Shown here one piece after another: positions 1,065 to 23,135 of a stretch of DNA of 23,135 nucleotides. The stretch is from Cladosporium halotolerans (lineage: Eukaryota), in assembly GCF_011745625.1 (NCBI RefSeq), contig NW_027191458.1, positions 992,001-1,015,135 on the forward strand. The letters are read 5' to 3'. How positions within the stretch are numbered: the stretch's first letter is position 1; each line of letters starts with the position of its first letter. The position numbers and the translations under genes were made by a program. Under the pieces are notes generated by a model, which saw only the letters and a program-made list of their open reading frames with translations, searched no databases and was not told the DNA's origin.

Positions 1065-1872
1065 ATTCGATAAACGATGGTCGGATTGGAAATCCCAGCA
1101 AACCTGCGTTTAGGACGGAGAGTTACTTTTGTAATGCCACAGCGGTACCTGCGTCATGGGTCTGGCCTAGACTTACGCATACTCCAAGCCGCGGACTCCA
1201 CGTCTACCGCTCTCAACGCGAGAGTCCCACCTTTAGGTACCTGTACTTTCCACGGCCTGGAGCGCATTCAGTCTCTGGGCCGCCGGCGGCCGCGTGGCGA
1301 GTGTGGAGGACACGACCTTAGTGTCTTGGGGAGCTCGGGGCTGCGGGTAGGTCGTTCATGATAGGCTGCAACAGGGATCAACTCTTGCTATTTCCGTCAG
1401 GTCAGGAACAAATACACAGTAATAGGCTTCGCTGGAATGTGGCGCATCCGGATGGAGATGTCATCGGCCGCGGTCCGCTGCTTGGCGGTATTCTTTCGCT
1501 GAGCACCGTCTGATCCCGGGGCATGGCTGAGCACTGCAAAATCAGCAGGCGGAGTGCCACGGGAGATTCGCCATGCCATAGCTTATACTACGCTTTTGCG
1601 CCGATGAAAAGCTATGATGACCGCGGAAGATAAACTGCTATATTCCCTATAGATGTACTTGACGTTCAGGACGTTGAGGAGTGGAGTGCGGGCGGCAGAT
1701 CTGGAGAAAAACGGCCCAGCTGTGATCGGCAGAGTGGCACACATCACATCACAGACTCTCTCGATCTAAAATTTCCACGCACGTGACTTCACAAGCCATC
1801 CGTTCTGCCGCATCCGCCGCACTCTTTGTTGGGATCAAAGAAGCTCTTGGTAGCTCAGCCAGCCGCTGTGGG

Positions 1873-2370
1873 ATGGCGGCAGATTTTCAGGCACCGTCGG
1901 GTGATCATCCAGACTACTATACCATCCTGAACCTTGCAAGTCGCAAGCAGGACCCCTCCCTGTCCCCTGCGGAGGTGAAGTCGGCCTACAAAAAAGCTCT
2001 GCTTCAGCATCATCCGGATAAGTCGACGTCAGTAGTCAAGCCTGGTTTCACCGTTGACTCCATTGCGCTGGCCTACAAAATTCTATCGTCGCCTTCTCTC
2101 AAAACAGAATACGACCTTGGCCTCCAGACTCTGCGGTCAAAGGACAGCGACAAGGTTTTCCACACTGGACTGGACACTGTTGATCTTGATGACCTAGCTT
2201 TTAACGAGTCAAAAGAAATCTGGACGAGAGGCTGCAGATGTGGCGATGACAGCGGCTTCATCGTGACGGAGGCGGAACTCGAGTCAAACGCCGAGGATGG
2301 CGAGCTGATCACCGGATGCAGAGGGTGTAGCCTGTGGCTCAGAGTGCTGTTTGGCGTGGAGGAAGGATGA
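1873..2370 (+). CDS. DPH4: Diphthamide biosynthesis protein 4 (J-domain plus CSL zinc finger)
   Basis: DYYTILNL...AYKKALLQHHPDK J-domain with HPD; VDLDDL; CRCG...GCRGCSLWLRVLF CSL finger. First ATG is at 1873 (the ORF track starts at an upstream GTG). Confidence 0.93.
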   Translation: MAADFQAPSGDHPDYYTILNLASRKQDPSLSPAEVKSAYKKALLQHHPDKSTSVVKPGFTVDSIALAYKILSSPSLKTEYDLGLQTLRSKDSDKVFHTGLDTVDLDDLAFNESKEIWTRGCRCGDDSGFIVTEAELESNAEDGELITGCRGCSLWLRVLFGVEEG

Positions 2371-2648
2371 GACAACCTCACCACTGGGGCTGCATGCCGG
2401 ATTTGACGGCATGCCCATTACGGGCTTCACCAATGTGAGGGTCAAGAGATTGAAGGGCAAAAAAATCGTTGCTCATTAGGTACCTGTGGGTATCAAGAAA
2501 ACGGAAAGCAAGCAACAAATCCAGCCGCTCAACCAGCCTAAATGTCGTCAAGAACAACCGACAACGCGATGAACGGTATCAAGCGGACCTAGCGACTGAG
2601 GCCTGCGCTGGTAATCAAATAAGAACGGCAAAGGATATCAGTCAACTC

Positions 2649-4610: not shown

Positions 4611-5542
4611 GCTCTTCACGTTACATGCGCGCGAAAGCTTGCGCAAGTACCTCAGTCGCGTTGTCCGGCTTCGCGCGGGGAAAACTCGTAGTCGTTCGTA
4701 GGTGATATAGGTGTATGTACGTTGACCTACCGTGGCATAGGCGCCAAATGGTGGGAACCGGGAGCGGAACCGGCGGCGAGGACGCCTCTCTTGAGGAGGG
4801 GCAGGGACTACGTACGCCTGCATAGCGTCTTACGCGACGAATATAGACCGGGCGCCGCAGCGAGGCTACCTCACTTAAAGCGGCCAAGCGCGACGCCCGC
4901 AGAGCTTAGCAAGGCTTGTTTGCACGCGAAACAGGATTTAGCTGAACTCTGACCTCACGCGGCAGACGCGGCCACTGCGGCATCCAGGACATGTGCATAG
5001 CCGGCTGCGAGGCTGGGTGAAGCGACGCGCCAGCCTTACCAGCCTCGTGCCCTTGGTCGTCCGTGCGAGCCCTACCGTAGGGCCAATCACTCGCACGTCA
5101 AGTTATGGCCGGCGAACCACCCCACTTCGCATCGGCGCCATGGATCTGACTGCTCCGCTCTGGAGATGAGAAGCGACACACCGGCACATCTTGGCAAGGC
5201 GCGTTGTCTGCTTCACGGCATAGTCATTCCATCTTGGCCGTATTGTTACGCATGTGCGTCCTGCCGACGTTTCCGCACGCCAAGTTGGCTCATCGTCTAC
5301 GCAGGCGAACGAATTCTTGGCTTTGTTCGATGTGGAGGAGCCAACAGGGGACCAAGACTTCCAAATGAGTAATAACAATGAATTTTGAACGGCACTGAAT
5401 ACGCGCTGCCTGTACAGTAAGCAACTGAGGCTGGTCGCTATGTAAGCCACAAATCCCGATTCGCCAAGGTATCTCAATATGAAACCACTCCCGTGCTACG
5501 ATGATCCAACTCCGGTTACGCCCACTTTGATCCGTCGTCTCC

Positions 5543-8025
5543 TCAAAAGTCTTCGTCGCCCATGTCGAACTCGTCTTCACCCGCCTCGATGAAGACGAGG
5601 CGCGTGCCTTCAGCGGCAGTTTGCCAGATCTAAGAAAACAATGATTAGCCTCGCAATTTTTGTCTCGCAGAACATCAGATTGACTCACATCCAAGTTGGC
5701 GTACTCGTCAAGACATGCCTCCAGCTGTTGTACGGTAAAACCCTTGGCGAGCACTCTCTCCCTGACGCGGCGCATGTCCAACTCTCCTCTGCCTTCGCCG
5801 GTCGCAGCGGCACCGCTGTCGCGCATGCCGCGGACAAGGTTGAAGATCTTCGTGCTCGGAGACTGGTCGCCGCGACGATCGCGGTTGTCGTCGTACAGAC
5901 TGGCCTTGCTGACCTCGACCAATCTGAGTGCCTCGTCGACGTCGTCGCTGATGACTTCGTTGGCAAAGCGGAGACGCGCGAGGGCTTGGGAAAGACGCAA
6001 GATACCAAGGAGGGTACGTGGCGAAGTGTGCGTGAACGTCTTTTTGCCGGCCTCATCCCGCTTCTGCTGTTGGCGCAGTCGTACGTACGCGCCGACGAGA
6101 TAGTCGGAGATGGCCTTGGGGACGACAGGGCGGAATGTACGTGCACGTGCAACCCACTGTCGCACTTCGTTAGGGGAGAAGACAAGACCACCGCCTTGAG
6201 GTTCAGGGTGGGCGTTGTGAATGTGGACGTGCGTAACGTGGCGAGCCAGCTCCTCATCAGCATCCCTGGATGGAGTGTCTAGAATGAGGAAGAGAACGTC
6301 GAATCTACTCAGCAGAGCGGCTGGCAGGTTAATGTTTTCGACAGGTGAGATGCGAGGGTTGTAACGACCATAGAGAGGGTTTGCTGCTGCCAAAATAGAA
6401 GTTCTGGCGTTCAACGTTGTCGTAATGCCGGCTTTCGAGATAGAAATGGTCTGTTGTTCCATGACTTCGTGAATAGCTGTTCTGTCGCTGTCGTCCATCT
6501 TGTCGAATTCGTCGATGCAGCAAGTACCATTGTCGGCCAGAACCAGAGCGCCACCTTCAAGAACCATCTCGTCTGTCACAGGGTCTCTCATCACAGCAGC
6601 GGTCAAACCAACGCCACTGCTACCACGACCAGTAGTGTATACACCACGAGGAGCGACCTTAGTAATGTACTTCAAAAGCTGAGATTTGGCGACACCAGGA
6701 TCACCCATCAAGCAGACGTTGATGTCTCCACGAATCTTCATGCCATCGCCCATCTCCTTGGTCACGCCGCCAATCAACTGCAGAAGGAGCGCCTTCTTCA
6801 CGTCCAGGTGGCCAAAGATTTCCGGTGCGATTGAACGACTGAGGTACTCGTAAAGCTGTCCAGACTGCTCGAGTTCCGTCATGCGTTGGATGGTCGTAGG
6901 CGCAAGCACCATGTCGTCGTAAGCCTTCTTGTGCTGGTGCACATATTGGGCCTCCAGGTAAGTATCCGTGAGCAGACCGGCCTTGATTGCCTTGAATCCA
7001 GTGTAGGGTATGGGCAGGAAGATGCCGGCAATGTCGATCACGTCGCCAGGATTGACCTGCCTGCAAAGCTCGCCATGACATTGAACGGTAAGCTGGCGTG
7101 GGATGTGGCCCACGGGTACCTGGTCTGCCATTTCCTGGATCTTGATCTCCTGGAACGGCAAAAACCTGGAAGCGCGCGTCGAAAGGAAAAGCTGTCCCTT
7201 TGCATTGTTCGACTGACAAGCATCGGATGTACACTCGACCAGAGGTGTGAAGTTCTGCGTGGTGACAGGCTGAAAAATCTCGTGGCCGCAGCGGTCGCAA
7301 GAGTAGGCGTTGACCTGGACCGAAGGCTTGACGTCGGACACTCTTGTCGCGATACCGCGGACAGTGATCAGGTGCCCTAGATGATCGCCGCGTACATTGC
7401 GAACAGCCAGAGCTTTCTTGCTGATTTCGCTACTCGAGCCGGACGGTGTGATGGGCTTGAAGTTGAGGGTATATCTCCTCGTCAGAGCCCGGGGAAACAT
7501 GGATTCTGCGGCCGCATGCTCGTTCCCGCTAGCCTCCAATTGTTGCATGACAGTCTCATTGTACTTCGCTCGCTGGGTCATGATGATGTCCAGCACATCC
7601 TCCTTGAAGCTTGTCTCTTGTGCGGGCTGAGGGAGCAGGTTGTCCACCGCACGAGATAGGATCTCAATGTAGTGATAGGCGTTCTTCTCGATGGATGCGA
7701 CAAGTTGCAAGTTGGAGTCCTCGGGTAATGTTTTCTCGTACTCCTGGAGGTCGTCCAAGCTCACCAACACCTGATTTGTCTTCCTGTCCGCAACGCTCTG
7801 CAGCATGTCCATGTACTTCTGCTTCGTTTTTCGGCCTCTGGGGCGCGCGCCAGCAGCATCGTCCATAAAGTCATATTCGTCGCTCTCATTGTCGCCATTC
7901 AGATTAAGGTCTTCCAGTGCATCTTCCGTTGCGGTCGAGGAAGACTTGAAGTTGCGCAGGAAATCTTCGAATGCCACTTGTTGTTCTTGATAGTTGACGA
8001 GAAACTTGGTTTGAAGGAGCGCCAT
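5543..8025 (-). CDS. MCM7: DNA replication licensing factor MCM7; exons 8025-5689, 5629-5543 (~807 aa)
   Basis: Zinc finger CDRC...C..DAC, IQEMADQVPVGHIPR, Walker A GDPGVAKSQ, Walker B CCIDEFDKM, Arg finger LLSRFD. Intron 5688-5630 (GTGAGT..GCTAAT..TAG) gives the C-terminus IWQTAAEGTRLVFIEAG...DF*. Confidence 0.97.
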
Positions 8026-8128
8026 GGCTGCTGTGAACCGTGAGCCTTTGCGATTTGGTCAATTGCGAGGATGAGCGAGGATGTGATATTCGCTGTCGCA
8101 TCTAAAGCCGGGGGCTGCAGAGGTAGAA

Positions 8129-8190
8129 GCGCGAACGCGCCCGCGTTGCTAGCAGCGACGGAGCGCGTTTGAGAGCGCGTCGAACGCGAA
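8129..8190. promoter_or_regulatory. Cluster of MCB-like CGCG elements upstream of MCM7
   Basis: Six CGCG cores (8130, 8136, 8142, 8164, 8176, 8185) within 60 bp, about 105-165 bp upstream of the MCM7 ATG. Confidence 0.6.
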
Positions 8191-8431
8191 GCGGGACTTC
8201 CCGCAATTTGCGTGCCCCTCGTTCCCTCCCTTCACTCACGCCACGCCCTCTTTGAAATGCGTGGCGCAGAGAAACAGGCAAGGTAGGCGAAGTAGGGTGG
8301 TACAGTTATCCAAGCAAGTAACGTTCAGGTAAGGTGTTGGCTCGCCTGTCTCATCCAGCCTGCCCCTGGCTACGTATTCAAGATGGACTTTCTGCGTTCA
8401 AAACGCTTGATACAACTCACTCTTTCACAAC

Positions 8432-9478
8432 ATGACACTCCCAGATAGCTTGGCCAGCGCCCGGCGAAGGCCAGTCTGTGGAGGCCACATCCTTCTAGTC
8501 TGTGCTATCTTTTCTGCCGTCTGCCTGTGCATACTCGAAGCCGCTTACAGCACCCCCAGGCCTGTTCCGCCGAATGTTGCGCCCGGTACGCTGGCGGCAG
8601 GGACGCTTCGCGAGCAGCTAGCAGAAGCATGGAGACTCATAGCGTCACCACGAGTAGACAACGAGGATGTCGAAGGCCGCTACAATTTTACAACCATTGG
8701 CTCTCAGGTCGATGTGGCTCCTGTCCGCACACGAGCACGTATAGGGAAATGCACTTCATTGTACGGCTCTTACGGACAAGACTACTATCGAGCATTAGCT
8801 ACCCATATCAAGCACAATGAGGCTCATCACTACGACGCTTATGTTCTCAATCGCTCCATTTTGGACGGAATCTGGTCAAAGCAAGCAGCATTGCTGGCGG
8901 TCGTACTGGAAGAATTGGAAAAGCCCAAGGATGACCGGCTTGAGTGGCTCGCTTGGTACGATGCTGACACCATGGTTCTCAATCGGTTGGTTCCACTGGA
9001 AATATTCCTACCGCCGCCAGACTTGACTGTCGTGCAAGCTCTGGTTACCCAAGACTGGAATGGCCTGAACGCCGGGGTATTCTTACTGCGGGTATCCGAA
9101 TGGACGGTTGAGTTTCTCTCGGCTGTACTGGCTTTTCCGATTTTCAGGCCTGATGTACAGCTCACATGGTCGGAGCAGAGCGCTATGGATGTGTTACTGC
9201 GAGAAGAAAGGTTTGCGAACGGGAGCGTCATTGTACCGGCGAGATGGTTCAATGCCTATCCGGGTGGTGCTCGTGGGGAGAAGTCTCTGAAGATTCGGAA
9301 GGGAGACTTGTCTCTTCATTTCGCGGGCATTGGTGACAAAGTGGGGGCTATGCAAGAATACTTGAACGATTTGGAGGCAAATAGAACAAAGTGGGAGATA
9401 CCGCTGGAGAAGACCAATTTGACCAGCGAGGCTGCATGGTTTTGGCAGGGTTACCGGCTTAGGGTTGATTCTGATTGA
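8432..9478 (+). CDS. Glycosyltransferase family 34 (GMA12/MNN10-like), type II membrane protein
   Basis: N-terminal TM segment; GIWSK, EWLAWYDADT (DxD), QDWNGLNAGVFLLRV, EQSAM, WFNAY and LHFAG motifs. Single exon. Confidence 0.88.
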   Translation: MTLPDSLASARRRPVCGGHILLVCAIFSAVCLCILEAAYSTPRPVPPNVAPGTLAAGTLREQLAEAWRLIASPRVDNEDVEGRYNFTTIGSQVDVAPVRTRARIGKCTSLYGSYGQDYYRALATHIKHNEAHHYDAYVLNRSILDGIWSKQAALLAVVLEELEKPKDDRLEWLAWYDADTMVLNRLVPLEIFLPPPDLTVVQALVTQDWNGLNAGVFLLRVSEWTVEFLSAVLAFPIFRPDVQLTWSEQSAMDVLLREERFANGSVIVPARWFNAYPGGARGEKSLKIRKGDLSLHFAGIGDKVGAMQEYLNDLEANRTKWEIPLEKTNLTSEAAWFWQGYRLRVDSD

Positions 9479-9639
9479 TATAGCAAGACAGTATGCCACC
9501 TTCCGCCTGAGAGCGAACGTCCGCTCCGCATTGCTACCACTGCCAGACGGGCGATTGATCAACCTGCATGAAAGCAAAGAGCCTCAATAGCATAGCGCAA
9601 GCCGATATGATATCAGAAGTCCCTTTGATGTAGCTGTCA

Positions 9640-10416
9640 TCATGCCAACTCCTTCAGTGTCCTTGCTTCTTCATCGTATTCTTTATCATAGACCGCTTCA
9701 AGCGTCGCAGACAGCGCCTCCGCGTTCCCTGTCAATGCGTCTTTCAGCCAGCCCTCCATCGAGTAGATGTCATCAGTATATTCTTCGGTAAGGCGTCTTA
9801 GCTCATCTGCTTCCTTACTCTTGTGCTCCAGCTCGGTTGGGTCGTTGTCGCTGTATGCGGCGAGCTCGTGGCGGACATTCTCCCGCTCAATCTCAAGGAG
9901 GCGTTTCTTGCTCAGAAGCTCATGACGGCATTCGCCACGATCTTCTAGAGCTTCATCGTCTGCGCAGCGTTGAGACTCAGCCTCTTCGAGCTTGCGCTTG
10001 AGCTCTTCGTCCGTCTCCACGGCTTTGCCATAAGTCGCCTTCGCCGCATCCAGAGCTCTTTGCCGAGTGATCTTGTCATCAAGGACGAAGTTCCAGTACC
10101 AATTGACTGAACCAATCCTTTCGGCACGGATCTTGCTGTCATCTTGTAGCATTTGGATATAGTCTGTGGCGATCTTGTCAGCGTATTTGAGAGCATCGAG
10201 GGTGCATCGGCTGCTTTACCCTTCACTTGCATGCCATTGATCTGAGCGACAGATGGCAGCGACTTCTCTAGGTCTTTGATGGTATGGGCTACACCCGACT
10301 TTTGGAGGTACGCAAGGGCCGCGGCCAACTTGGCCGGTGTGCAGTTCGTCTTTGGCGCCTGGATGCTGTCAGATTCAGGGCACGTGATCAGTGCTCACTG
10401 GAGGCAGGCTCACCAT
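9640..10416 (-). CDS. MND1: Meiotic nuclear division protein 1; exons 10416-10414, 10358-10220, 10163-9640 (~221 aa)
   Basis: Spliced product MAPKTNC...HTIKDLEKSLPSVAQINGMQVKDYIQMLQDDSKIRAERIGSVNWYWNF, then coiled coil, YSDNDP, YTDDIYSME. Two GT-AG introns preserve the frame. Confidence 0.9.
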
Positions 10417-10803
10417 GACTGAAGCAGTTACCTATTGTGACTCCTCGAAGCGTCAATGTCTCAATTCTGGCTAGGGACAGAATCGAGAGCGATTTCGTCG
10501 GAGACAGGTGAAGTCAAGTCGACGGCAAGAGCAGGCAAGCGTGCCTGCCTCAGGATCGAGCGCATACTGCTCACTTTGACCTCGCGATCGTGGCATAGAA
10601 TCACAACACAAGAGCAGACTAGGCATACTGCAGGGGCATGAACTTCGATTGAAGTTTAGAAATATCCATAGCATGTCATTGCGTTGCATGAGATGTCTCA
10701 ATCAGGCACTATCGACCCGGTGCTTAGCAATTGAGACACATTGCCAAGTTGGCCACCATCACGTCGACAGCGTGCGCAACATGTCGAGTCGGCATCGGCA
10801 GAC

Positions 10804-12614
10804 TCAAGCAGACGTCTCCCTGGTCTCAACCTCCGGGCGCTTTTCACCAAGATCAATGGTGTCAAGTCCACCAATCTCAGCAGCAAGCTCCTTGGACTTG
10901 GCAGTAGCAGCGGCGCCACCGAGAACAGCATCCTACGCGAAGTTAGCATGGAACAGGACTTGGTCAAATAAGTGTCACTCACCTCGCCGTCGAAATGCTT
11001 CGCAATCTCTTCAAGAGGGGTGTAGCGCGTCTCGATGTAGAAGAAGTAAACCACGACAAGCTCCACGGCAATCCACACATCATAGACGATGTAGTACTTC
11101 CAGTGGATGTGATCGAGGGCGATGGGATTGACGTATTGGTTGCTGTGATTTGGTTAGCATGTCTAGCTGGTCTGGTCACAATGCTGTCATGCCGAGGCTC
11201 GCAAGGTCTTCGCCACCGTCACCGTCACCACCGCCACGCAAGAGAGAGGAAAAGACTCACAAGAACAGTGCAATATCAACCATCAGGAACATCAATGTCA
11301 TACCCTTCGCTCGGATGGAGTAAGGGAGGATCTCCGCGGAGTAACCGACGAGCAATCCTGACCACGCCATATTGTAGAACACGTAGTACAGGAAGATCAT
11401 CGCAACCACAGCGTTTGCAGAGGCCTTGCTTTTGTTGATATCGAATTGAGCGGAGCAAATGGTCCATACGATGAACGTGGCCAGCATACCGGTAGTTGCA
11501 GTGAGGAAGAGCGGACGGCGTCCAATCCTGTCGACGAAGAAGCATTGCCCGGTCGCGACAATGATGTTCAAGATCTGGAGACAGCCATTGATGATGAGCT
11601 GAGTGTTGCTGTCTGTGATGCCGATGCTGTTGAAGATGATGTTCAAGTAGTAAGAGACAAGGCCGTTGCCTGACCATTGCGAGAACAAACCGAGCGACAG
11701 AAGGATGATTAGCCTGTGGCGGTTGCCCTTTGTCTTGACCAGCTCCAACCAGCCGTTGCTCTCGAATTCCTGCTCAAGCTTGATTGTGTCCTTGATCTCT
11801 TGCAGCTCAAGGTGCACGATTTCGGAATCAAGATCACCATTGGCGTGGACCTTGGCAAGCACTTGATGCGCCTTCTCAACCTTGCCGTGAGCAATGAGGA
11901 AACGCGGAGATTCCGGCACAAACCACACGAAAGACATCTGCAAGATGGATGGTAGTGCCTGCACCAACGACGGAACACGCCAGCACCAATTGCTGTTGAT
12001 GTGGTTGGTACCAAAGGTCAGCCAAGCTGCGATGAAGGACCCGATGTACCAAGTGGTGTTGTATATAGTCGTGAAGGTGGCTCGGTGCTGAGGGTGAACA
12101 AGCTCTGTGACAAGAAGCGGCGAAGATCCATGTGCGATTGCAATGCCGAAACCGAGAAAGAAGCGAGCAGCGATGAACATCTTGAGGTTGATCGAAATCG
12201 TCTGCAGAATGACGCCGAGGACCATGATGATGCATCCAATGAAGATTCCCCACCGTCGCCCAAGTAGATCAGCAGTGTAAGGCACAACTGGTAGGGCGAC
12301 TAGAGAGCCGATGGACATGATACAGGCTAGAAGACCGAGGAGGGAACCCTTGGGGTGACCGAAATCTAGTAGGAGTCAATGAAACAAGCTCACAAATTGC
12401 CAAACCGAAGTCTATCCTGGTACTTACAGTCTTGCCAGTAGTCTAGGGATTGGAGACCATTGACCATTGAACCATCGTACCCATTGGTTGCAGAGGTAAG
12501 GACGACGAAGGCCAAGCAGATGTACGTCTTCCTCAATGCTGGGTCCTTGTACCACGTCACCTCGGGAAATTCACGTCCCGCCAGGCGAAATGTGCCTTTC
12601 GTAGGCGCCTCCAT
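10804..12614 (-). CDS. MFS sugar porter, lactose permease/cellodextrin transporter-like; exons 12614-12428, 12365-11261, 11142-10983, 10932-10804 (~526 aa)
   Basis: TSATNGYDGSM, ADLLGRR, PESPRFL, FSQWSGNG, VDRIGRR, EILPYSIRAKG, NQYVNPIAL and ETRYTPLEEI motifs. Three canonical introns give a continuous frame. Confidence 0.9.
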
Positions 12615-13934
12615 TTTGCTTCGATGTTGTAGAGAGTTGTTCGAGGAGTGAGAGGATGGCAAGGAAAAACAGGACGGTGATGGGCCGGAAAGACATCTTT
12701 ATCGGCAAGCGTAGGGGTATCATGCAATGGCTCCTGTTTAACCGGAGTGACTTGAAGGTCGCAGCCACCTATACCACCTAGCGCCAATCGAGCATATTGA
12801 CACGGCAGATAGCAAGTGCTGTCACGCTCGGAAGCAGCAGACTCCATGGGGCGACCCATTGATGCTAAGCTCTAGACCAAGATGCCAACCCGCTCGGTTG
12901 CCGCCTTGACGAGTCTTGTACGCGACTCGTCTACAGCCCCGGGCCTAGTGCACATTGGGGATAGATGCGGTCTCCCCACGCGAGACTGTCCCGTCCCCGG
13001 ATCACTAGACCTGTACCTAGACCAGTGTTTCGGGCGAGAACATGGCGACCTGAGCTCTCAGCCGAGGCTATGGCGCGCGGGCTGCAGGCTAAAAGGGCTT
13101 CAATTTATCCGCCAGCATTGATTGCGACAAGCGAGTGAGATAGCCAGAGAGAAATTCCGTGTGTTCAAATGTGATGAGTGGACGCGTTCTGGCCGTGGAC
13201 GACAAGGAAGGAGGCAGAGCAGGCTGATCGTGCTGGTGGGTCTTCGAAGAGACCATCATCCATGTGGGCCTTCCGGACCCAATTTTGTCCTTCTAGCGGA
13301 CACACCGTTCTCCAACTCCACGTGCGAGAGAAGGAAGGCCATCACACATCTTGACTTGGGCATCCATCTGTCGTATGACTGGCGCTTTAGGCTTCAAGTG
13401 CTTAGCAGAATCTTGTCATACTGGGTTACCTTTCTGAGCGTGCCGCTGCAGGCTCGCATCTCGCTTGATGAGCTTCTTCTGATGAAGCTCTCGTCGACCC
13501 AACCTAAGCAAGCAGCGTGGCTGTTCATGCGGGTAATATTCTATATTGCCGGGTTTCCAGTCCATGCTAGCCACATGAAGCTCGGAAAATTGCTGTGGCT
13601 GTCGGGCGGCACCGCCCTTTTGTGCAACCCCACCCATGCCGGGGCAGTCCGCCAGTGGCAGAGACGCGGTGGAGGTGATGGATTTTGATTCCTTATCCAA
13701 TGTTACTTTTTACATAGATGCAATGTGCTTCGCATCGGAGCTTCCTGGCCTTTTGTGTGATTCATAGAACTTTCCATTCTCCTCCCAATCTCATCAGAGG
13801 CAAATATTGTCCGGGGCCCGGCGTACGTCCCGGTCTGCTGCCATCACATATTTAGCCGCCGCATTCATGTCCACAAGCGTAACGGCAGGGCTGACTCTGG
13901 AAGGCAGCAGCAGTCCTGCAAAGTATCCGACGGC

Positions 13935-15743
13935 TCATGGGCGTCGTACGAACTCTATCTCTTGTTTCGTATCGGGTGTGTATACGAGGACATGGTTGTA
14001 CTGAGGCTCTTGCGGCTTCTGAGCATCGGGTAACTTGAGATCAAGATGAGTGATCGCATGAGCGAGCGCAGTCTTTATAACCGCAACAGCCAGGAATCGA
14101 CCGGGACAAGCATGGGATCCAGCGCCAAATTCAAGGGCTTGAGGGTTTGTCGATACACTGAGGTAGCGTGCACTCTGATCTGGCTGCTCGTTACGCTGGC
14201 GCCACCATCGGAAGCCGTCGAATGGGCGGGCTGCAGTTTCGGGGTCCGCATCGGGGTCGATCGAGGGGACACAGATGTAAGATGACGCCGGCAAGACGGT
14301 ACCGTCGCTGAGATGCAGAGGCCGCAGTGCTTTGCGGTAGACCGACAGCACATTTTGTGAGACGTGACGCGCCGATTCCTTGATGAAGCTGTCCATCTTC
14401 TCCAGTTTCGCCAGCGAGGCAACGGATAGTTCTTCTTGTTCGACCACGGATCGAGCCTGTTGCAGCTCTTCGCGCAGCTCTTGCGTGTATTCCGGGTGGA
14501 CCGCGATGTCAATGAGGGATTGCATGACCTAACAAATCAGTCGGCCTTGTCATTTTCCCCCGACGTATCTGTAGACTCACCGCAAGACCTGTGCTGCGAA
14601 TCCCTGCGAAGTTCAGCTGGATCAATGCGACCACCAGCGCGGATACATCGTCCGGACGACGACCAGCAGAAGTAGACTTTTGGATCCACCATTGAATGAA
14701 GTCCCTCGGTGGAACAAAGCTGTCTTTCCGCATACTCTCAATTCTCGTCTGGCAAGGTCAGAATGGATACTGTTGACGGTCTGCTGGCGGGGATTCTTCA
14801 TCCTACCTACCTTGACTAGAGGTCGGATTTTGTCCTCCATTCTTCGCACGTTGGCCTTCACATCACGAGGGCCTTTCATGAAATTCGCAGCGATGGGACG
14901 AAGCCAGACTGGTACACGCATAAGAGACCCGGCTACGCCGACCGAGCTCAAGCCAAGGTCAACGCAGGCCGCTTTCTACCACTCTAGTCAGCGGGCAGTT
15001 CGAAACATAGTCTAAAGGATCGAGGAATAGATATACCCATTCTGGATCCTTTGCCAGATCTTCCCCGACAAAAATACGCTGATAGAGAGAGAAACAAAGT
15101 GCGATGCAGAAGTCGTGAACGCCAACCGTAGATTTGCCTGCAACTCAGAATTAGTCAGTTGCCAGACCTGGCGTAGAGCACTTAAAACACACCATTCTCG
15201 GTGTCGGGGAGAACATGGGCTTCGAAATGGGCGGAAATGTCCTTCTGAATGGCAGGCAGATAGAAAGAAATCTGTTTCGTCAATTCTGACCGGACGTAAG
15301 CAACAACCCAGCTGTAAGGCCCATCTGATCGTCCAGACTATTAGTGAGACAAGCTCAAGAAGTTACATCGATGGAAGGCAGCACGCACCAGGATCATCGG
15401 GCGTCAGAGATCCGATGTAGGTCCATCGACCTAACAGCCGCTCTTGAAGGTCAGTGTTCGAGCTGATCTGATTATCGGGTTTCCAGACGTATTCGTTGAT
15501 GTACTTGTGTGGTAACACATATATTCTGCGGAATGGTAGGCGCAGCCGGTAGATAGTTTGCCGTACTTGAGACCATTGCTTTTTGACGACATCTTGTAGG
15601 ACTTCGGCACTTTCGCCGCCAAACTCTGGGATCTTGGATTGAGCTGGCCGTCGCCAGACCACGGCAGCGAAGGTAAGAAGCCAGATTGTAACCCCAATGG
15701 CCACATACTTTTCTGCCAGATGATCAAGGAAGATTTGGCTCAT
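13935..15743 (-). CDS. Cytochrome P450 monooxygenase, secondary-metabolism type; exons 15743-15389, 15324-15193, 15137-15037, 14975-14811, 14748-14581, 14528-13935 (~504 aa)
   Basis: N-terminal membrane anchor; RIFVGEDLAKDPEW; I-helix LNFAGIRST; KMDSFIKESAR (ExxR); FDGFRW; heme motif FGAGSHACPGRF. Five GT-AG introns; exon lengths sum to 1515 nt in frame. Confidence 0.92.
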
Positions 15744-16462
15744 GTTATCGGTGGTTGTACAGCGTATTCGTCGGTATTGCGATTACCATTGCTCACTGAA
15801 TCTACATATAATATGGAAGCCTCTAGTATTGCTCATTACCTGGCTGAAGACAAGAATCAGCTATGCTTTCAAGATCACGGACCGAAGCCTATTCGACGGA
15901 TCATGCTAGCGGAGGCGTAAGCGAGTCTCGGGGCAGAGATTGGCAGCGCTTCAGCCGCAAACTCAAGTCATCATTTCAGCTCCGCTACACTAGTGGGATC
16001 GCTCCGCTAGCACAAGCCCAATCTCAAAGTAGAGAGACGCAACTGATCTTCGCCTATAGAGCGTTGCCTGCTTGTCCGCAATGATCGGGCGTCCCATCCC
16101 GCAAACCGAATCCTTCCTGACTGTCTGGCTCTGGCGGTTGACTCATGAACTCCGCCAAATGCGCCTTGCTCAACCATTTCGTGCAGATCGTTGCAGCTCG
16201 AGTCAATCAACATGTCCGCTCGATACATTCAGCTCGCTCGCAAATGCTCGAATGCTCCCTCTGGGCAGGTCTCTGGGGATCAGCTTCTGCAGAGCTTGGG
16301 TTACATTCTCCCCACGCGCCACGGTCGTCATCCCGTCCTCGCGCTAATCGAAATCAGATTATGCTGTGGAACAGCAAAGTAGTTCTGTGCTAGTTGAAGC
16401 ACATTCTATAGACTGATACGTGTGCCATGTCTCAGCTATCTCGATGTACTCCCAAATTCTTC

Positions 16463-18100
16463 TCACGAGCTCTCAATCGAAAGACCAAAAGACGTTACCA
16501 ATTGCAAAGTAGCCACAATGCACTGAAAGACGAACTGGGGGATTGATTAGTGATAGACTAAACTTGAGCCGAGGCCAACTTACCAAGATGTTTTGATCGA
16601 ACGGTGCCTTCAGCCCGTTTAATAAGCCCCAAGACCATAAAGCGCCCGCAACAGTTGGACCGACGGCTCTGCTCGCCGAAATCGCGGCTTGTGCAAATGA
16701 CACAGTGATGCCGCGATGGTTGGGCGGAGCGGACAGCGTAAGCTTGAATAAGAAACATATTAGCAAAGATCGAGTTCTGATCTCAACAAGCGGAGCTCTC
16801 ACCAGTATTGCCACACTCGTGTAACCGATCACGACGGCCGCGATACGCATTCCGAGTAGAAGGTAGAGGCAGCTCCACTGAAGCAATGATTTGTTGGGCA
16901 GTTCAAGAACGAAGCCGAATGAGATGTATACGACCAAGAAGAGAATAGAAGATATTCTCCACAGGGTCGCGTACGTCAGCCGTTGCGAAAGCATCGGGTA
17001 GCCTACGAATTGTACAGTGAGCACAATCGGGCCGAGGAAGAGAAGAGTTCTTGCGATGTCGCTTGAGGTAAATCCCAGGCCGATAGGTAATTTGGTCGCT
17101 GCTATTGCGGGATACATCTCGTCAAAAGAGATAGCGTGGAGGGCGATGATTCTGTGATCAAGTTAGAACAGGCAGCGTCAACACCCTAAGACGTGTAACT
17201 AACGCATGGCCGCCTATAAGTAGAACGAGGCTGCGAGTACGCTTTGGTGCCGACTTCAAGGTCGCCTCATCACCTCTTGGAGCGATGAGAGGGGTCTCCT
17301 CGTCTTCAGTTCTTGCGAGCTCTCGAGACGGCTTCGATATATCCAGATTAGTCTCCTCCAAATAGGGAATGCAAAGGACTACGACAATGATGTTGTAGCA
17401 TGCACTGATAGCGCAGGGAAGTAGATATGGATATTGAGCAAAAATCCCAGCCGGCCCCGTGAAGCCGTACTTCTCTGTGGGTTGACACAGGAAGCCGCCT
17501 AGAAGAGGCCCCAAGAGGGTACCCATCGCTGTACAAAGCCCAAATATCGAGAACGCGCGACCTTGGTGGATACCATTGTTGGCTGCAAACTCTCCCACTG
17601 ACGTTCTGGAGACACCAGCGTTGCCTAGCATAAAAAGCGTTAAGCCAGGACCAGGACGATGAACTGGTATTCTCCGTACCATTGAAAAACCCACAGAGGG
17701 CTCGGGATATTATGGCCATCGTCAAGTTTCCAGAGATGCCATAAAGTACAGTACACACCGCGGAGCCGACGAGACCGAACAAGAGAACCGGCTTGCGTCC
17801 GAGGCGGTCACTGACGGCGCCATACAACGGTGCAGTAAAGACCTGGGCTACGAAGAATGCGGACGCTGTTAAGGCAGTGTCAGCCGATTCAAGTGGTGAA
17901 TGGAGGTCGTGTGGTGCTATGGTCTTACTGATAACGCCACACCAGAAGGCGACAGAGCGTTCGTTCACAGCTGGAAAATCGCGGACCATGAAGACCACAA
18001 ACGACAGAAGCATAGTCGCGGCCAATGGTTCGGCGAGCACCACCAAGCCGGTGAAAAAGAGCGCTCGCCTGACAGCGAGGCTCTGAGAATCACTCGCCAT
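16463..18100 (-). CDS. MFS transporter (drug:H+ antiporter-like, probable cluster exporter); exons 18100-17929, 17865-17680, 17624-17204, 17151-16803, 16742-16584, 16534-16463 (~452 aa)
   Basis: LAEPL, motif A GAVSDRLGRKPVLL, NGNAGV, GTLLGPLLGG (motif C-like), YPYLLPC, LEET, EETPLI and RAVGP. Many hydrophobic helices. Exon lengths sum to 1359 nt in frame. Confidence 0.88.
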
Positions 18101-18576
18101 TGCTGAAGAATATGGTCCTCTTAGCCCGACTTGTGATGGTTTGTGTATGCATCGCTGGGCGATGGCGAGATGAGCTTATATGACCACGCCAGCCATCGCT
18201 CGTCCCATCGCTTCCCAAGACTATGGGCTTCAGAAGTCATGTTGAGATGCATTCTCCGGATCGAACACAGTGGGATGGAGCAGCAATGACACGGACGTGG
18301 ACGTAAGGAATGTTGCATTCGGTAATAATAATGGTCCGTCGCACTAGCGGAGCGGAGGCGAGGGCGGACCGCCCGCATCGACTTCCCTGCTTCCACCGCA
18401 GGGGCCCACTTTTCCAATCCTTCCCCTTCGCTTCTCTACACTCGCCGTCTCTATGCATCATCGTCATCTCCGTCCGCATCTTCAGGTCCACCGCGTTAGG
18501 ACTCTTTGGCAGCCTCTACCACTATGCAGCTAGCTCCATTCCTCCAGTCAGGCGTGCAGGACCCGGACTCCCTCTC

Positions 18577-19354
18577 TCATCCCACCCAAGGCAGCGCTAG
18601 CGGCGTCTGCGTCCCACCGGCCTTCGAGATGGTTGCCTCTCCGCAGACGTCAGAGAGCTCGAATGGCAGCTCGATCTTCCGCGTGGCCTGCACGTGGCGG
18701 AGCATGCGCAACGCCTTGCGGCATTCCGCCTCTGTCTCTTCGTTGAAGCTCAGAGGTCGCGCGGTGCCCACCGCCAGAGCCCCACCCTCGCCGTCGAAGT
18801 AGCCCAGGTGGAAACGCCCTGCGTTGTCAGACAAGGAGTTCACTGTCTGGAAGACGTAATCCTCCTCGAAGAAAGGCTGCTTAGGCTTCGGCACATTGTC
18901 CCAGTTCACCATGTGTGCGTGACACTTGGTGGTTGTGCACTCAATCTTGGATGTCGTGTACTCGAACCAGTCAAATTGCTAACGCTGGTGTCAGTGAGTG
19001 AGTCTCAAAAATGGTGCTTGAGGATGACCAATTACCTCGTTGTCTGGATGGCAAGGGGTAGAGTCCGCATCTGCACTTGCCGGTAGCCACCTGAAAGAGT
19101 GAGTCTATGTCCATGGAAAGCGCCCCACTTACTCACCATCCGAAGCTGATGTATCCAGTCTGACCGAAGTAGCAGTAGAAGTTTGCTGCAGTGGCTGTGT
19201 GATTGGCTGCTTCATGGTGGCTGTAATCGGGACGCAGGATGAGCGACGTTCCGTGGAACAAAAGTTTCTGAGTCCAGTCCTCCGCAAGGGATCGCTGAGA
19301 CAAAAGTGCTAGCATCGCAACGAGCATCATCTTGGTCCTGCTGCCGATCGCCAT
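18577..19354 (-). CDS. Small secreted Cys-containing hypothetical protein, possibly lipocalin/calycin-like; exons 19354-19137, 19090-19036, 18978-18577 (~224 aa)
   Basis: Introns 19136-19091 (GTGAGT..CAG) and 19035-18979 (GTAATT..CTGAC..TAG) join three fragments into one 675-nt frame. Signal-like MMLVAMLALLSQRSLA, 6 Cys, one NHT sequon. Start could instead be the ATG at 19330. Confidence 0.75.
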
Positions 19355-19809
19355 TTCGGGTAAGTCCTGTTGCTTGTGCACGCCATTCTGTGGCCACGAA
19401 AGGAAACACATGTCTTATAGCAGTACAATTCCTCCGGGAAATGTCAATCTGGGAGCTGAAAATGCGGTCTTCGAATGGCATTGCGCCACTCCGCAAGGTG
19501 CCTCTAGCGTCGCCGCAATCTCATACCAAGCATACACGAGACGCAGGTGAATCACACTAGCGGTTCCTGCAGTGCTTACATGCGGGCTGGGGATGATGAT
19601 CATGCGGCTTTCGCCTCGCTCTCAGCTGCGGACTGAATTGGATCTTGCGGAGCAATACGACATCTCGGACCGCGCAGATCGTAGAGACAATGTCGATGAA
19701 TTGAGAGGTAAGTAAAGACGACAGGTATATCACAATGCTTCGAGATCATAAGCATCATCGTCAAAGCAAAGGTAACAGCACAGAGTCGTTCTTTTGCAAT
19801 CATTCGACT

Positions 19810-22800
19810 ATGTCTATCTCAGGAGAAGAAATCGCCATCATCGGCACGTCTTGCCGTGTTGCCGGTGCAGAAAGCCCTTCTGAGCTGTGGCGATCAATGG
19901 TAGCAGGCGAAGACTGGCAATTCAACACGAGCGCTCGATTCTCAGGGTATTACGACGAAGTAAACGGCAAGACAAAAGGTTTGACGAATGTACGCCACGC
20001 CTACCTGTTGAAAAACGGTATCGACCGCTTCGACAACTCTTTCTTCGGCATTGCTCCAATTGAAGCTGCCGCCATCGATCCTCAGCAAAGACTGCTCTTG
20101 GAGATCTGCTGGGAGGCGTTTGAAAGCGCCGGAATTCCATTGGATAAACTTCAGGGGTCAGATACCGCTGTCTTTGCGGGTCTCTTCACAAGCGACTATG
20201 GCACAAGTCTACTGCGGGATGTTGACACGACTCCAAAGTATCATTCAACGGGAACCTCAAACTCGATTGCGGCGAATCGCATCAGCTACTTCTTCAATCT
20301 CCATGGACCATCTATGGTTATTGACACTGCGTGCTCATCGACCGTGACAGCGTTGCACCAAGCGATCAACACCCTCAAAGCTGGCGAGGCGGAGCAAGCC
20401 GTGGTGTGTGGAGCGAACCTCATCCTCAACCCTGACATGTTTGTCACGATGAGCGAACTTGGGTTTCTCAGTCCTCGCGGACGTTGTCACTCCTTCGACG
20501 CTTCTGGTGACGGCTACGCTCGCGGAGAAGGTGTGATGGCGATTGTCTTGAAGCCTCTGAAGAAGGCAATCGCAGACAACGATCCCATTAGGGCGGTCAT
20601 CCGTGGCTCCAGACTCAACCAAGACGGGAGAACCAACGGCATTACACTACCTTCGGGCGAGGCACAAGAAGAGAACATCCGCAAGTTGTACGCCAGTATT
20701 GGCGTGATCCCCGATGACCTGGATTATCTGGAAGCCCATGGGACAGGAACCAAAGTAGGAGATCCGATTGAGATGAACGCTATCGAAAGGGTCTTTGCAA
20801 ACGAAAAGCGCGGGCAGAAACTAATCGCCGGTTCCGTAAAGTGCCACGTTGGCCACCTTGAAGCCTGCGCCGCTCTGATCGGCATCATCAAGACAATAGA
20901 GTGCCTGGAACGTGGCGTTGTGCCTGCTCAGCTTCACCTTTCTGAGCCGAATCCCAAGATCAACTTCGAGGAGCTCAAGATCCCAACTTCAACCATTCCT
21001 TGGCCCGCGAGGGAGGGCCGCGCACGCATGGCTGGCATTAACTCTTTCGGTTTCGGTGGAGCGAATGGTCACGTTGTTCTTCAACAATACATGCGCACAC
21101 ATGAGCCAGACACTGCGCCTCTAGTAAAGCACTTCCTCGTCAAAGTCTCTGCAGAGACTGAATCTGCTCTCACTCGAAGCAGGGAAGATCTGGCCACTTA
21201 TCTTTCAGACCCAAGCGTCCAGATCGGCGACGTGTCGTACACCTCCATCCTGCGCAGGTCACTCTTGCGAAAGTCCCAGTTCTTCGTGGCTTCATCCACC
21301 ACGGATCTGGTCCAGCAATTACGCCCGGAGACTAACACCAACCTGCCTGCTGTCATAACATCTCAAGGCACCCAAGGTCATAAACGCATTGCTTTTGTGC
21401 TCACCGGACAAGGAGCTCAATGGGCGCAGATGGGCAAGGAGCTTCTGAATCACTGCGCAAGGTTTTCATCCGTCATCGATGAGTGTGACCGCATTCTGTC
21501 CCAATTGCCAGACCCGCCGTCATGGACGCTGCGTAATGAGCTTTGTCTCTTGCCCTCCAAGTCGAACGTCAACAGCTCGCGCTACTCCCAACCACTCTGC
21601 ACGGCGTTACAGCTTGGCCTGATCAGCTTCTGGCAAATTCTGGGCATCCAACCTGTAGCGTGCGTGGGGCATTCCTCTGGCGAGATCTCTGGAGCGTATG
21701 CGGCGGGCATACTGACGCTCAAAGATGCCATCATCATCGCTTACTACCGCGGCATCTTTATGAGTGCTGCCTCAGCCGCGAAGCCGGGTGCCATGGCTGC
21801 AATTTCAATGAGCGCCGAGGAGTGCATACGAATGCTAAGCGCCTACGATGGCAAGGTAGACCTCGCGGCTGTGAATTCGCCGTCCAGTTGCACTATCTCT
21901 GGCGATGGCTCCTGCATTGACGAAATCGTGGCGAGATTCAAGGAAGAAGGCGTCTTCTGTCGCAAGCTACGTGTCGACACTGCGTTTCACTCGCATCATA
22001 TGTTGCCTCTGGCTGGGCCATACAAGAACGCGCTGGAGAAGGCCGGAGTGTCACCCATACGAACTGCGAACTCTGGGGCACACACAACCATGCACTCTTC
22101 CGTGTACGGACGCCCCGTGGATGCGGCAGAAGTGACTCCAGAGTATTGGGCAAAGAATATGACCCAGACTGTCCGATTCTGTGACGCCGTTGCAAGTCTG
22201 GCAAAGCTAGAGAATGTAGATGCTTACCTAGAGGTCGGACCACACCCCGCACTGAAAGGCCCTGCCATCGACAGTATCACCAACGCCATTGGACAAGGTA
22301 ACACGCCAGAATACTTCAGCACCTTGACCAGGGGAGTCCACGACACTTTGGCGCTGTTCTCATCAGTTGGCGCCATGATCTCAGCTCGGATACCCATGGC
22401 GATAGAAGGCGACGGTGCCGGTGCACTTGGACTGTCGCACACGAAGCATCGGGTTCTAGTCGATTATCCTTGCTACCCCTGGGATCACTCCACCGTCCAT
22501 TGGGCCGAGAGTCGTATTTCACGGACTCATCGTTTCAGACAGCATCGCCGTGATTTGATCCTTGGCTCAAGAGTACCTCACGACAACCCCCTTGCGATGT
22601 GTTGGAGGAACATTTTGAGAACCGACGAGTTGCAGTGGCTGGATAAGCGAAGCAATGCAGGTGAGTCATTGCTATCGCCATCGCTTTTCCTCCAGATCGC
22701 AATCAGAGCAAGCCTGCAAATCATAGGTGATCATGCGGACGACACACAAATCATCCAGCTCTCTGGCATACAATTCCACCAGCCGCCTCAACCAGTCTCT

Positions 22801-23109
22801 CTCAGAGTCCGAGAATGGGAGACGCAGTTCCAGCTGACTCCGATGGCCGCCTATTCTCGGTATAACTTTCGCCTCATGATTTGCGGTCCTTCTGAATCTT
22901 GGTTTACCGCTTGCGAAGGGCAACTGCTGCTTTCTACGGACATTCCCTTGCCATATGGCCTACAGAATGGCAGTGTCGAGGGGAAGGGAACAATGATTTC
23001 CCCTGCAGAGATCGATTCGCTTCAGTGTCCTCCGTCCAGAGAGTACACCGACAGTCCATTATGTTCATTATGTTCATTACGTCATGTCATGTTCATCATT
23101 CCGACATGA
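19810..23109 (+). CDS. Iterative type I reducing polyketide synthase, N-terminal part (KS-AT-degenerate DH); incomplete or disrupted at the 3' end
   Basis: KS: EIAIIG, DPQQRLLLE, DTACSS (Cys codon 20332), EAHGTGT, GHLE, NSFGFGG. AT: FVLTGQGAQW, GHSSGE (Ser codon 21673), AFHSHHM, LEVGPHPAL. Linker YPWDHS. DH-type start DLILG...WRNILR. ATG at 19810. Confidence 0.93.
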   Translation: MSISGEEIAIIGTSCRVAGAESPSELWRSMVAGEDWQFNTSARFSGYYDEVNGKTKGLTNVRHAYLLKNGIDRFDNSFFGIAPIEAAAIDPQQRLLLEICWEAFESAGIPLDKLQGSDTAVFAGLFTSDYGTSLLRDVDTTPKYHSTGTSNSIAANRISYFFNLHGPSMVIDTACSSTVTALHQAINTLKAGEAEQAVVCGANLILNPDMFVTMSELGFLSPRGRCHSFDASGDGYARGEGVMAIVLKPLKKAIADNDPIRAVIRGSRLNQDGRTNGITLPSGEAQEENIRKLYASIGVIPDDLDYLEAHGTGTKVGDPIEMNAIERVFANEKRGQKLIAGSVKCHVGHLEACAALIGIIKTIECLERGVVPAQLHLSEPNPKINFEELKIPTSTIPWPAREGRARMAGINSFGFGGANGHVVLQQYMRTHEPDTAPLVKHFLVKVSAETESALTRSREDLATYLSDPSVQIGDVSYTSILRRSLLRKSQFFVASSTTDLVQQLRPETNTNLPAVITSQGTQGHKRIAFVLTGQGAQWAQMGKELLNHCARFSSVIDECDRILSQLPDPPSWTLRNELCLLPSKSNVNSSRYSQPLCTALQLGLISFWQILGIQPVACVGHSSGEISGAYAAGILTLKDAIIIAYYRGIFMSAASAAKPGAMAAISMSAEECIRMLSAYDGKVDLAAVNSPSSCTISGDGSCIDEIVARFKEEGVFCRKLRVDTAFHSHHMLPLAGPYKNALEKAGVSPIRTANSGAHTTMHSSVYGRPVDAAEVTPEYWAKNMTQTVRFCDAVASLAKLENVDAYLEVGPHPALKGPAIDSITNAIGQGNTPEYFSTLTRGVHDTLALFSSVGAMISARIPMAIEGDGAGALGLSHTKHRVLVDYPCYPWDHSTVHWAESRISRTHRFRQHRRDLILGSRVPHDNPLAMCWRNILRTDELQWLDKRSNAGESLLSPSLFLQIAIRASLQIIGDHADDTQIIQLSGIQFHQPPQPVSLRVREWETQFQLTPMAAYSRYNFRLMICGPSESWFTACEGQLLLSTDIPLPYGLQNGSVEGKGTMISPAEIDSLQCPPSREYTDSPLCSLCSLRHVMFIIPT

Positions 23110-23135
23110 TATGAACATGGATGTCTGGGAATGAA
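23057..23135. repeat. Short direct and inverted ATGTTCAT repeats at the window end
   Basis: ATGTTCAT at 23061, 23070 and 23089; inverted copy ATGAACAT at 23111; TCATTCC (23096) and GGAATGA (23128) form an inverted pair. Confidence 0.55.

Follow-up and report, generated by a model that had tools for sequence, protein, structure and literature searches.

INTRODUCTION

The lipocalin-like Diels-Alderases Fsa2, CghA, MycB and Phm7 are proteins of ~380 amino acids with two β-domains and no signal peptide, and enzymes of the Fsa2/CghA type act on acyl-tetramic acid precursors without the aid of a cofactor. Small proteins without annotation are also frequent in the gene clusters of fungal hybrids between polyketide synthases (PKSs) and nonribosomal peptide synthetases (NRPSs), and some have proved to be ring-forming enzymes. 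For example, the relevant sections of a study of the xenoacremone PKS-NRPS cluster describe XenC, XenD and XenF as small ‘hypothetical proteins’ that are needed for ring-forming steps (PMC8642415). Here we describe a gene for a 224-residue protein that resides beside a PKS-NRPS gene in a stretch of 23,135 nucleotides from the fungus Cladosporium halotolerans (hereafter ‘the window’). Based on its predicted fold, the product is called the barrel protein.

The closest described system is the putative cluster clsA-clsL of Cladosporium sphaerospermum SW67, which is assigned to cladosins, cladosporiumins and cladosporicins (PMC6891565) and is credited in that paper to an original description in Org. 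Chem. Front. 2019, 6, 1084. The sections devoted to the cluster present ClsI as a PKS-NRPS with the domain order KS-AT-X-Y-KR-C-A-PCP-R and a ‘TPMAAD’ motif in an unassigned domain (PMC6891565). In the gene table of the supplement (PMC6891565, pages S84-S86), clsJ lies between clsI and the cytochrome P450 gene clsK, and the sugar transporter gene clsL lies beyond. The same table enters clsJ as an ‘uncharacterized protein’ with 1102 in the size column and no function, and gives UniProt matches from Verticillium longisporum, Aspergillus steynii (A0A2I2FWU0) and A. campestris. It also lists Beauveria proteins as the best matches for clsG and clsH. Strain UM843, which belongs to the same species as SW67, is described in the pertinent part of PMC4886633 as having a single PKS-NRPS, with the order KS-AT-KR-ACP-C-A-T-R. 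A literature search for clsJ in connection with cladosporiumins yielded nothing relevant besides PMC6891565.

The window parallels this arrangement. A ClsI-type PKS-NRPS gene adjoins the barrel gene, and genes for a P450 and a sugar transporter are found on the far side, both on the minus strand. The A. steynii protein A0A2I2FWU0 is a member of the barrel protein family (our P0011) and gives an E-value of 1.4e-35 against the window protein. At the place that matches the TPMAAD motif of ClsI, the window synthase reads TPMAAY. Judged by its position and by this shared UniProt match, the window gene most probably corresponds to clsJ as its orthologue in a sister species. There is also a difference between the two systems. 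The SW67 table shows no major facilitator superfamily (MFS) gene between clsJ and clsK, whereas one is present there in the window and in a metagenome locus described below; the MFS gene of SW67, clsG, is located on the other side of clsI.

The gene itself is therefore not new, as it is annotated in NCBI and its probable orthologue has already been named clsJ. What we add are confirmed splice junctions, the extent of the protein family, a predicted fold, a conserved four-gene module and secretory features. Together these lead us to propose that the barrel protein is probably an unstudied helper of a PKS-NRPS natural-product pathway.

RESULTS

A spliced and expressed gene head-to-head with a PKS-NRPS gene

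The minus-strand exons of the barrel gene (Table 1) were joined by script to give 675 nt, or 224 codons and a stop. The product is identical, letter for letter, to the NCBI/UniRef entry ‘hypothetical protein WHR41_03128 [Cladosporium halotolerans]’ (P0001). An earlier note made from the sequence alone had proposed a three-exon gene for a protein of ~224 amino acids, and both its junctions and its length proved to be right. That note had also called the gene ‘hidden’. This description is apt for the open reading frame (ORF) track, where six in-frame stops in the unspliced stretch leave only fragments and no single ORF for the gene, but not for NCBI, where the same gene model was already present.

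Six RNA libraries contain part of this stretch, and assembled RNA contigs from four metatranscriptome runs (X15-X18, under four study codes) were compared with it. The contigs of every run skip the same two segments. One is 57 nt long (18979-19035). The other is 46 nt long, with a joint at 19087/19134 that corresponds to 19091-19136 when its +3 ambiguity is taken into account. Both skipped segments have CT..AC ends on the plus strand, which correspond to GT..AG on the minus strand, and thus the junction check on RNA that the earlier note had in mind finds both introns removed exactly in 4/4 runs. The ACTGAC sequence in intron 2 resembles a fungal branch site.

The contigs span from ~18303 to between 19351 and 19379, such that the 5ʹ untranslated region (UTR) of the barrel gene occupies at least the first 25 nt of the intergenic region (to 19379). 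At the other end, a poly-T loose end that precedes position 18303 on the plus strand in X15 indicates the poly(A) tail of a minus-strand RNA. Since the variants in X15-X17 are identical, these three runs may represent one source, and with X18, which carries different variants, at least two independent sources are represented. The contigs are 95-99% alike to the window, which points to a close relative as the source of the RNA and not necessarily to the same strain. Differences within the coding sequence (CDS) are synonymous in six of seven cases for X15-X17 and in eight of eight for X18, and the two small indels fall in the 3ʹ UTR. The gene is real, spliced and expressed, and its reading frame is under purifying selection.

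The head-to-head arrangement with the synthase gene that the earlier note described is also borne out, with the ATG of the barrel gene at 19354 and that of the synthase gene at 19810, 455 bp apart. The two genes may share a promoter in this region. An alternative in-frame ATG for the barrel gene exists at 19409-19411 (-), 57 nt upstream; translation from it would lengthen the protein by 19 residues and leave the signal peptide internal. The RNA contigs extend to 19379 only and contigs cannot fix a 5ʹ end; the homologues begin at the annotated start.

A conserved four-gene module in distant fungi

Scanning metagenomes with an 8-row alignment of the family returned five loci, and a full-length relative is present in two of them (L001 and L002). 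In the remaining three (L003-L005), the match is confined to 40-57 residues around the search motif, and these loci were set aside as unproven. In both loci with a full-length relative, the KS domain of a PKS is located within ~4.5 kb of it. The relative in L001 is 34% identical to the window protein and is encoded head-to-head with a KS-AT gene, whose product shares 52% identity with the window synthase across 665 aligned residues. After the barrel gene in L001 comes an MFS gene, and beyond it lies sequence that resembles the window P450. Thus, by tblastx, the order and orientation PKS / barrel / MFS / P450 are the same in L001 and in the window. The relative in L002 is 33% identical, and 4.4 kb separate it from a KS domain (51% identical); a Zn2Cys6 factor is encoded in between.

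The proximity to a synthase that had been pointed out in the window therefore recurs among the homologues, with a PKS KS domain nearby in 2/2 full-length metagenome loci and with one of these loci collinear over four genes. Gene order that is kept between barrel proteins of about one-third identity argues for a shared function. We conclude that PKS-NRPS, barrel protein, MFS transporter and P450 genes form a conserved four-gene module. This account of gene context covers three independent loci; the named homologues (Aspergillus, Lasiodiplodia, Fusarium, Hypoxylon, Daldinia, Dactylellina, Wilcoxina and others) are outside it.

The two metagenome homologues, L001:3448-4137 (+) and L002:5352-6032 (+), are each encoded by one uninterrupted ORF, in contrast to the Cladosporium gene with its two short introns.

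An unnamed protein family with secretory features

An exhaustive HMMER search of 1.84 billion representatives yielded 64 homologue clusters at E<=0.001, including 37 at E<=1e-10. Many of the matches are fragments that derive from prokaryote-style gene calls on fungal contigs. All named homologues belong to Pezizomycotina, where the family has a patchy distribution. Named full-length members of ~200-250 amino acids occur in Cladobotryum, Aspergillus steynii, Lasiodiplodia, Fusarium decemcellulare, Dactylellina, Wilcoxina, Trichophaea, Hypoxylon, Hypomontagnella and Daldinia. Neither P0001 nor any of 23 aligned members matches a Pfam entry at E<=10, and no PDB chain is matched at E<=10 by either the single sequence or the family profile. 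The ESM Atlas gave no usable match for P0001, and its model of another member (P0013) is poor (pLDDT 0.35), such that the matches of that model were disregarded. Literature searches under the locus tags of six homologues found nothing, nor did a search that joined lipocalin, highly reducing polyketide synthase and signal peptide, and the family is not mentioned in the available portion of a survey of Verticillium PKSs (PMC9495618). The 224-residue product is thus a member of an unnamed Pezizomycotina family.

Conservation within the 23-row alignment is concentrated at a small number of positions. Residues W95, E97, C105, C110 and C177 are invariant (23/23 rows), and Y132, Y151, G162, F197 and C203 are each present in 22/23. 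Asp at position 153 and Arg at position 164 are each found in 19 of the 23 rows. As the earlier note had counted, the window protein has six cysteines, which are C61, C86, C105, C110, C177 and C203. Among those not yet mentioned, C86 is present in 19/23 rows and C61 in 9/23.

The N-terminal segment that had been taken for a signal peptide stands out in hydropathy, with a best 10-residue window of 2.87 at residues 9-18. All full-length rows that have a starting methionine and an intact N-terminus (16/16) carry a comparable hydrophobic segment, with a lowest value of 1.73. Signal-peptide cleavage sites commonly follow a -3/-1 rule, and small residues occupy positions -3 and -1 before residue 25 of the window protein. 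Of the 17 rows with an intact N-terminal half, 14 have an N-x-S/T sequon in the loop that joins strands 1 and 2. From these features of the alignment, the protein would be expected to enter the secretory pathway, to form disulfide bonds and to carry a glycan in this loop.

A C-terminal [DE]L that resembles an endoplasmic reticulum (ER)-retention tail ends 11 of the 23 rows (SEL, GDL, GEL, SDL and two KDEL). The majority of them depart from the classical ER-retention pattern. Proteins of the Cladosporium type end in PWVG or similar and have no [DE]L tail.

UniRef names one member (P0010) ‘Ecp2 effector protein domain-containing protein’. This identity is not reproduced by Pfam, whose Hce2/Ecp2 model (PF14856) matches 0/23 members at E<=10, P0010 included.

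A predicted eight-stranded barrel closed by a helix

The AlphaFold2 model of P0001, built from a 65-row alignment, has a predicted local distance difference test (pLDDT) of 86.1 and a predicted template-modelling score (pTM) of 0.80. It begins with a signal helix (residues 8-18), continues with eight strands (31-41, 53-64, 67-76, 95-99, 110-118, 128-138, 146-152 and 159-166), and ends with a helix (171-190) and a disordered tail. A second AlphaFold2 model has the same build (pLDDT 88.9, pTM 0.83). This was made for a Lasiodiplodia member that is ~35% identical to the window protein, using its own 60-row alignment of largely the same relatives. Both models thus agree with the earlier suggestion of a barrel followed by a helix, and the passage from strand 8 (159-166) into helix 171-190 falls in the very segment that had been indicated.

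Foldseek found no match in the PDB at E<=0.001. Eight-stranded barrels head its list, among them PmSLP, VtrC, an amine-binding lipocalin, OmpA and nitrophorins. In a fold search independent of Foldseek, de novo barrels and OmpA ranked highest, with top Z scores of 6.9 and 8.2, followed by lipocalins at 5.3-6.8, YceI and TT1927b at 5.7-6.3, DynF at 5.7-5.8 and nitrobindin at 5.7-6.0. When the Foldseek list was re-scored, the amine-binding lipocalin of Rhodnius (4ge1_D) came first with Z 7.3 and a root-mean-square deviation (rmsd) of 4.3 over 136 aligned residues, in an alignment that covers barrel and helix (model residues 23-197). The leading matches are all eight-stranded barrels and many are small-molecule binders, including 4ge1, nitrophorins (Z ~6), YceI, TT1927b, BcnA, nitrobindin, avidins and DynF. 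Bacterial barrel cyclases of the AbyU/PyrI4 type, dirigent proteins and allene oxide cyclase are conceivable analogues but are not among the 50 fold matches listed, which is no ground for rejecting them.

Neighbouring genes and the synthase

The genes that flank the barrel gene are listed in Table 1. The housekeeping genes, which lie left of ~10.5 kb, mark the left limit of the cluster, and the sugar transporter gene is probably its edge. Between the sugar transporter and P450 genes there is an open frame of 188 codons (13122-13688, +) that has no Pfam, L001 or L002 match and may be non-coding.

Table 1. Features of the barrel gene and of the genes around it, numbered from the first nucleotide of the window.
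Feature	Position	Strand	Basis
Start codon of the barrel gene, ATG	19354	-	Sequence reading
Exon 1, 218 nt: start codon, signal-peptide-like segment, barrel strands 1-3	19137-19354	-	Joined CDS = P0001; RNA contigs to 19379; hydropathy
Signal-peptide-like segment, codons 1-24	19283-19354	-	Hydropathy
Intron 1, 46 nt, GTGAGT..TTTCAG	19091-19136	-	Skipped by RNA contigs, 4/4 runs
Exon 2, 55 nt	19036-19090	-	Sequence and RNA contigs
Intron 2, 57 nt, GTAATT..CGTTAG, with ACTGAC branch-like site	18979-19035	-	Skipped by RNA contigs, 4/4 runs
Exon 3, 402 nt including TGA (18579-18577): strands 4-8, C-terminal helix, disordered tail	18577-18978	-	Joined CDS, fold model
3ʹ UTR, ~274 nt, to poly(A) site near 18303	18303-18576	-	RNA contigs to 18303-18323; X15 poly-T loose end
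Divergent intergenic region, 455 bp, common to barrel gene and PKS-NRPS gene	19355-19809	.	Synthase start inferred from KS position in P0089
PKS-NRPS gene, 5ʹ part (KS, AT, degenerate DH), runs off the window	19810-23135	+	Pfam
MFS transporter gene, several exons, directly downstream of barrel gene	16473-18100	-	Pfam MFS_1 and Sugar_tr; collinear MFS in L001
Cytochrome P450 gene, clsK-like	13935-15782 (5ʹ limit approximate)	-	Pfam p450 2e-17, C-terminal exon only; tblastx to L001 at 15034-15632
Sugar transporter gene, clsL-like	10698-12375	-	Pfam Sugar_tr
Housekeeping genes: DnaJ/CSL zinc-finger protein, C2-domain protein, MCM7, GMA12/MNN10-type glycosyltransferase, Mnd1	1-10400		Pfam

The neighbouring gene had previously been described as a PKS. 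It does carry polyketide synthase domains, but its relatives show it to be a PKS-NRPS hybrid and not a plain PKS. The KS-AT part in the window is 99% identical to a 2794-residue fragment (P0088) and 83-84% identical to full-length proteins from two Sodiomyces species (P0089 and P0090), both of which have the domains KS-AT-KR-C-A-T-R (R being NAD_binding_4). Such high identity between Cladosporium (Dothideomycetes) and Sodiomyces (Sordariomycetes) suggests horizontal transfer of the cluster. Another PKS-NRPS (P0092) is 81% identical, and it may share one 37241-nt contig with two fragments of the barrel protein family (P0005 and P0009).

The DH region (22560-23109, +) gives a sub-threshold PKS_DH_N match, with 21.4 bits against a cut-off of 27, and Pfam detects no methyltransferase (MT) or enoylreductase (ER) in the full-length relative P0089. 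A weak DH together with no MT or ER fits the unassignable ‘X-Y’ domains of ClsI and a hydroxylated, little-reduced chain.

DISCUSSION

A proposed role for the barrel protein

On balance, we think it slightly more likely than not that the barrel protein handles the metabolite of the cluster, presumably an acyl-tetramic acid. We envisage a pathway in which the acyl-tetramic acid would be made in the cytosol by the PKS-NRPS, oxidized by the P450 and carried across a membrane by the MFS transporter. The barrel protein would enter the secretory pathway by means of its N-terminal signal peptide and would adopt a disulfide-stabilized, eight-stranded up-and-down β-barrel that is closed by the C-terminal helix. 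It would then meet the product either extracellularly or in the secretory-pathway lumen and take it into the barrel cavity, where it could either carry out a cofactor-free step (cyclization, isomerization or dehydration) or simply hold the product. Since no NAD(P)H, S-adenosylmethionine (SAM) or ATP is expected beyond the membrane, any chemistry performed there should be cofactor-free.

The conserved residues W95, E97, Y132, Y151 and D153, together with the Arg found at position 164 in most relatives, might constitute an active site or binding site. The invariance of E97 and W95 and the near-invariance of Y132, Y151 and D153 are more suggestive of a defined site than of a loose hydrophobic pocket. 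On the strength of this pattern we lean slightly towards an enzyme over a passive carrier. A bolder extension of the proposal is that such proteins form a new class of cofactor-free tailoring enzymes, which would be disulfide-bonded, single-barrel, calycin-like and lumenal, and would act on acyl-tetramic acids delivered by MFS transporters, for example by setting the spirocyclic or cyclized forms found among cladosporiumins and cladosporicins. We regard this extension as tentative and somewhat doubtful.

Several points count against a metabolite-directed role. The fold-match Z scores are all 8.2 or lower, and the search tool rates values below 8 as a common arrangement. The signal peptide and its cleavage after residue 24 are deduced from hydropathy and the -3/-1 rule. 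Position 164, an Arg in 19/23 rows, is an Ala in the window protein. The three independent loci with gene context are a small sample. In addition, the authors of the cls report state that, of the cluster genes, clsI and clsK alone seem to be required to form the tetramic acid (PMC6891565).

Other explanations for the gene and its location must be considered alongside this proposal. The product could be a secreted effector-like or cell-wall protein that is unrelated to the metabolite and merely shares a divergent promoter region with the synthase gene. Being small, cysteine-containing, equipped with a signal peptide, free of Pfam matches and patchily distributed in Pezizomycotina, it has the usual profile of an effector candidate, and the UniRef name of P0010 points in the same direction. 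However, the Ecp2/Hce2 model that would justify this name is unmatched in the family, and the preserved order of PKS, MFS and P450 genes at 34% barrel-protein identity is hard to explain without a shared function. The [DE]L ends of nearly half of the rows also hint at intracellular retention of those members, although the window protein has no such tail. We judge an effector or cell-wall role to be unlikely. Less probable still is that the protein serves as a lumenal partner, such as a chaperone or subunit, of the adjacent MFS transporter or of the membrane-bound P450 without binding a small molecule itself. It is true that in the window and in L001 alike the barrel gene immediately precedes an MFS gene that shares its strand, and that the product has a predicted secretory signal, as a lumenal partner would. 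Nevertheless, nothing tested points to contact between proteins, most of the leading fold matches are barrels that bind ligands or sit in membranes, and the 6.3 kb covered in L002 show the relative beside a transcription factor and a KS domain but include no MFS gene.

Finally, the locus might hold no gene at all, but only chance ORF fragments flanked by chance GT..AG pairs, as could be supposed from the lack of a single ORF that covers it. This idea is refuted by the spliced RNA contigs with exact joints in every run, and the nearly complete restriction of CDS differences to synonymous sites, the 64 homologue clusters and the two confident fold models likewise oppose it, so that it retains next to no probability. 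We continue to favour a helper protein that would bind or tailor the acyl-tetramic acid.

If the barrel protein is a lumenal enzyme, then part of a PKS-NRPS pathway would operate on the other side of a membrane from its synthase, and the gene bears on the question of whether part of such a pathway runs within the secretory pathway. The barrel gene is a candidate for those cladosin-type steps that are now called ‘spontaneous’. Its family has no Pfam entry and no solved relative, and yet its place beside synthase, MFS and P450 genes is kept across deep divergence. Should the protein turn out to be no more than a carrier, or to be secreted for an unrelated purpose, the finding would be an ordinary one.

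Comparison with known barrel proteins and small cluster proteins

Kernel lipocalins carry a G-x-W in their first strand, where it constitutes structurally conserved region 1 (SCR1). Strand 1 of the window protein has no G-x-W, and its sole GWW (residues 72-74) is located in strand 3. In addition, neither P0001 nor the 23 aligned members match a Pfam lipocalin profile at E<=10. The protein does resemble lipocalins and other calycins (4ge1, nitrophorins, HP1028 and BcnA) in its modelled eight-stranded up-and-down barrel with a C-terminal helix, and in being apparently secreted and disulfide-bonded. However, the corresponding Z scores of 5.3-7.3 are tied with those of OmpA, avidins and de novo barrels, which are unrelated. 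The lipocalin kinship raised in the earlier note is therefore not upheld, and the models suggest a protein that is calycin-like in shape only.

DynF, from the dynemicin enediyne pathway (PDB 6ubl), provides another parallel, as it is also an eight-stranded barrel of unclear role that belongs to a polyketide cluster, with Z scores of 5.7-5.8 over 122-127 aligned residues. DynF is bacterial and shares no sequence similarity with the window protein, and these Z scores are within the chance range of common folds. The comparison with XenC, XenD and XenF is one of analogy, in that all are small, unannotated proteins of PKS-NRPS clusters.

The lipocalin-like Diels-Alderases of the Fsa2/CghA type, which belong to decalin-tetramic acid clusters, differ from the window protein in size and architecture, since the latter has 224 residues, one barrel with one helix, and a signal peptide. 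The PDB search at E<=10 retrieved no chain, although the PDB includes solved members of this type. What the window protein has in common with these enzymes is that a barrel protein is encoded beside a fungal PKS-NRPS gene.

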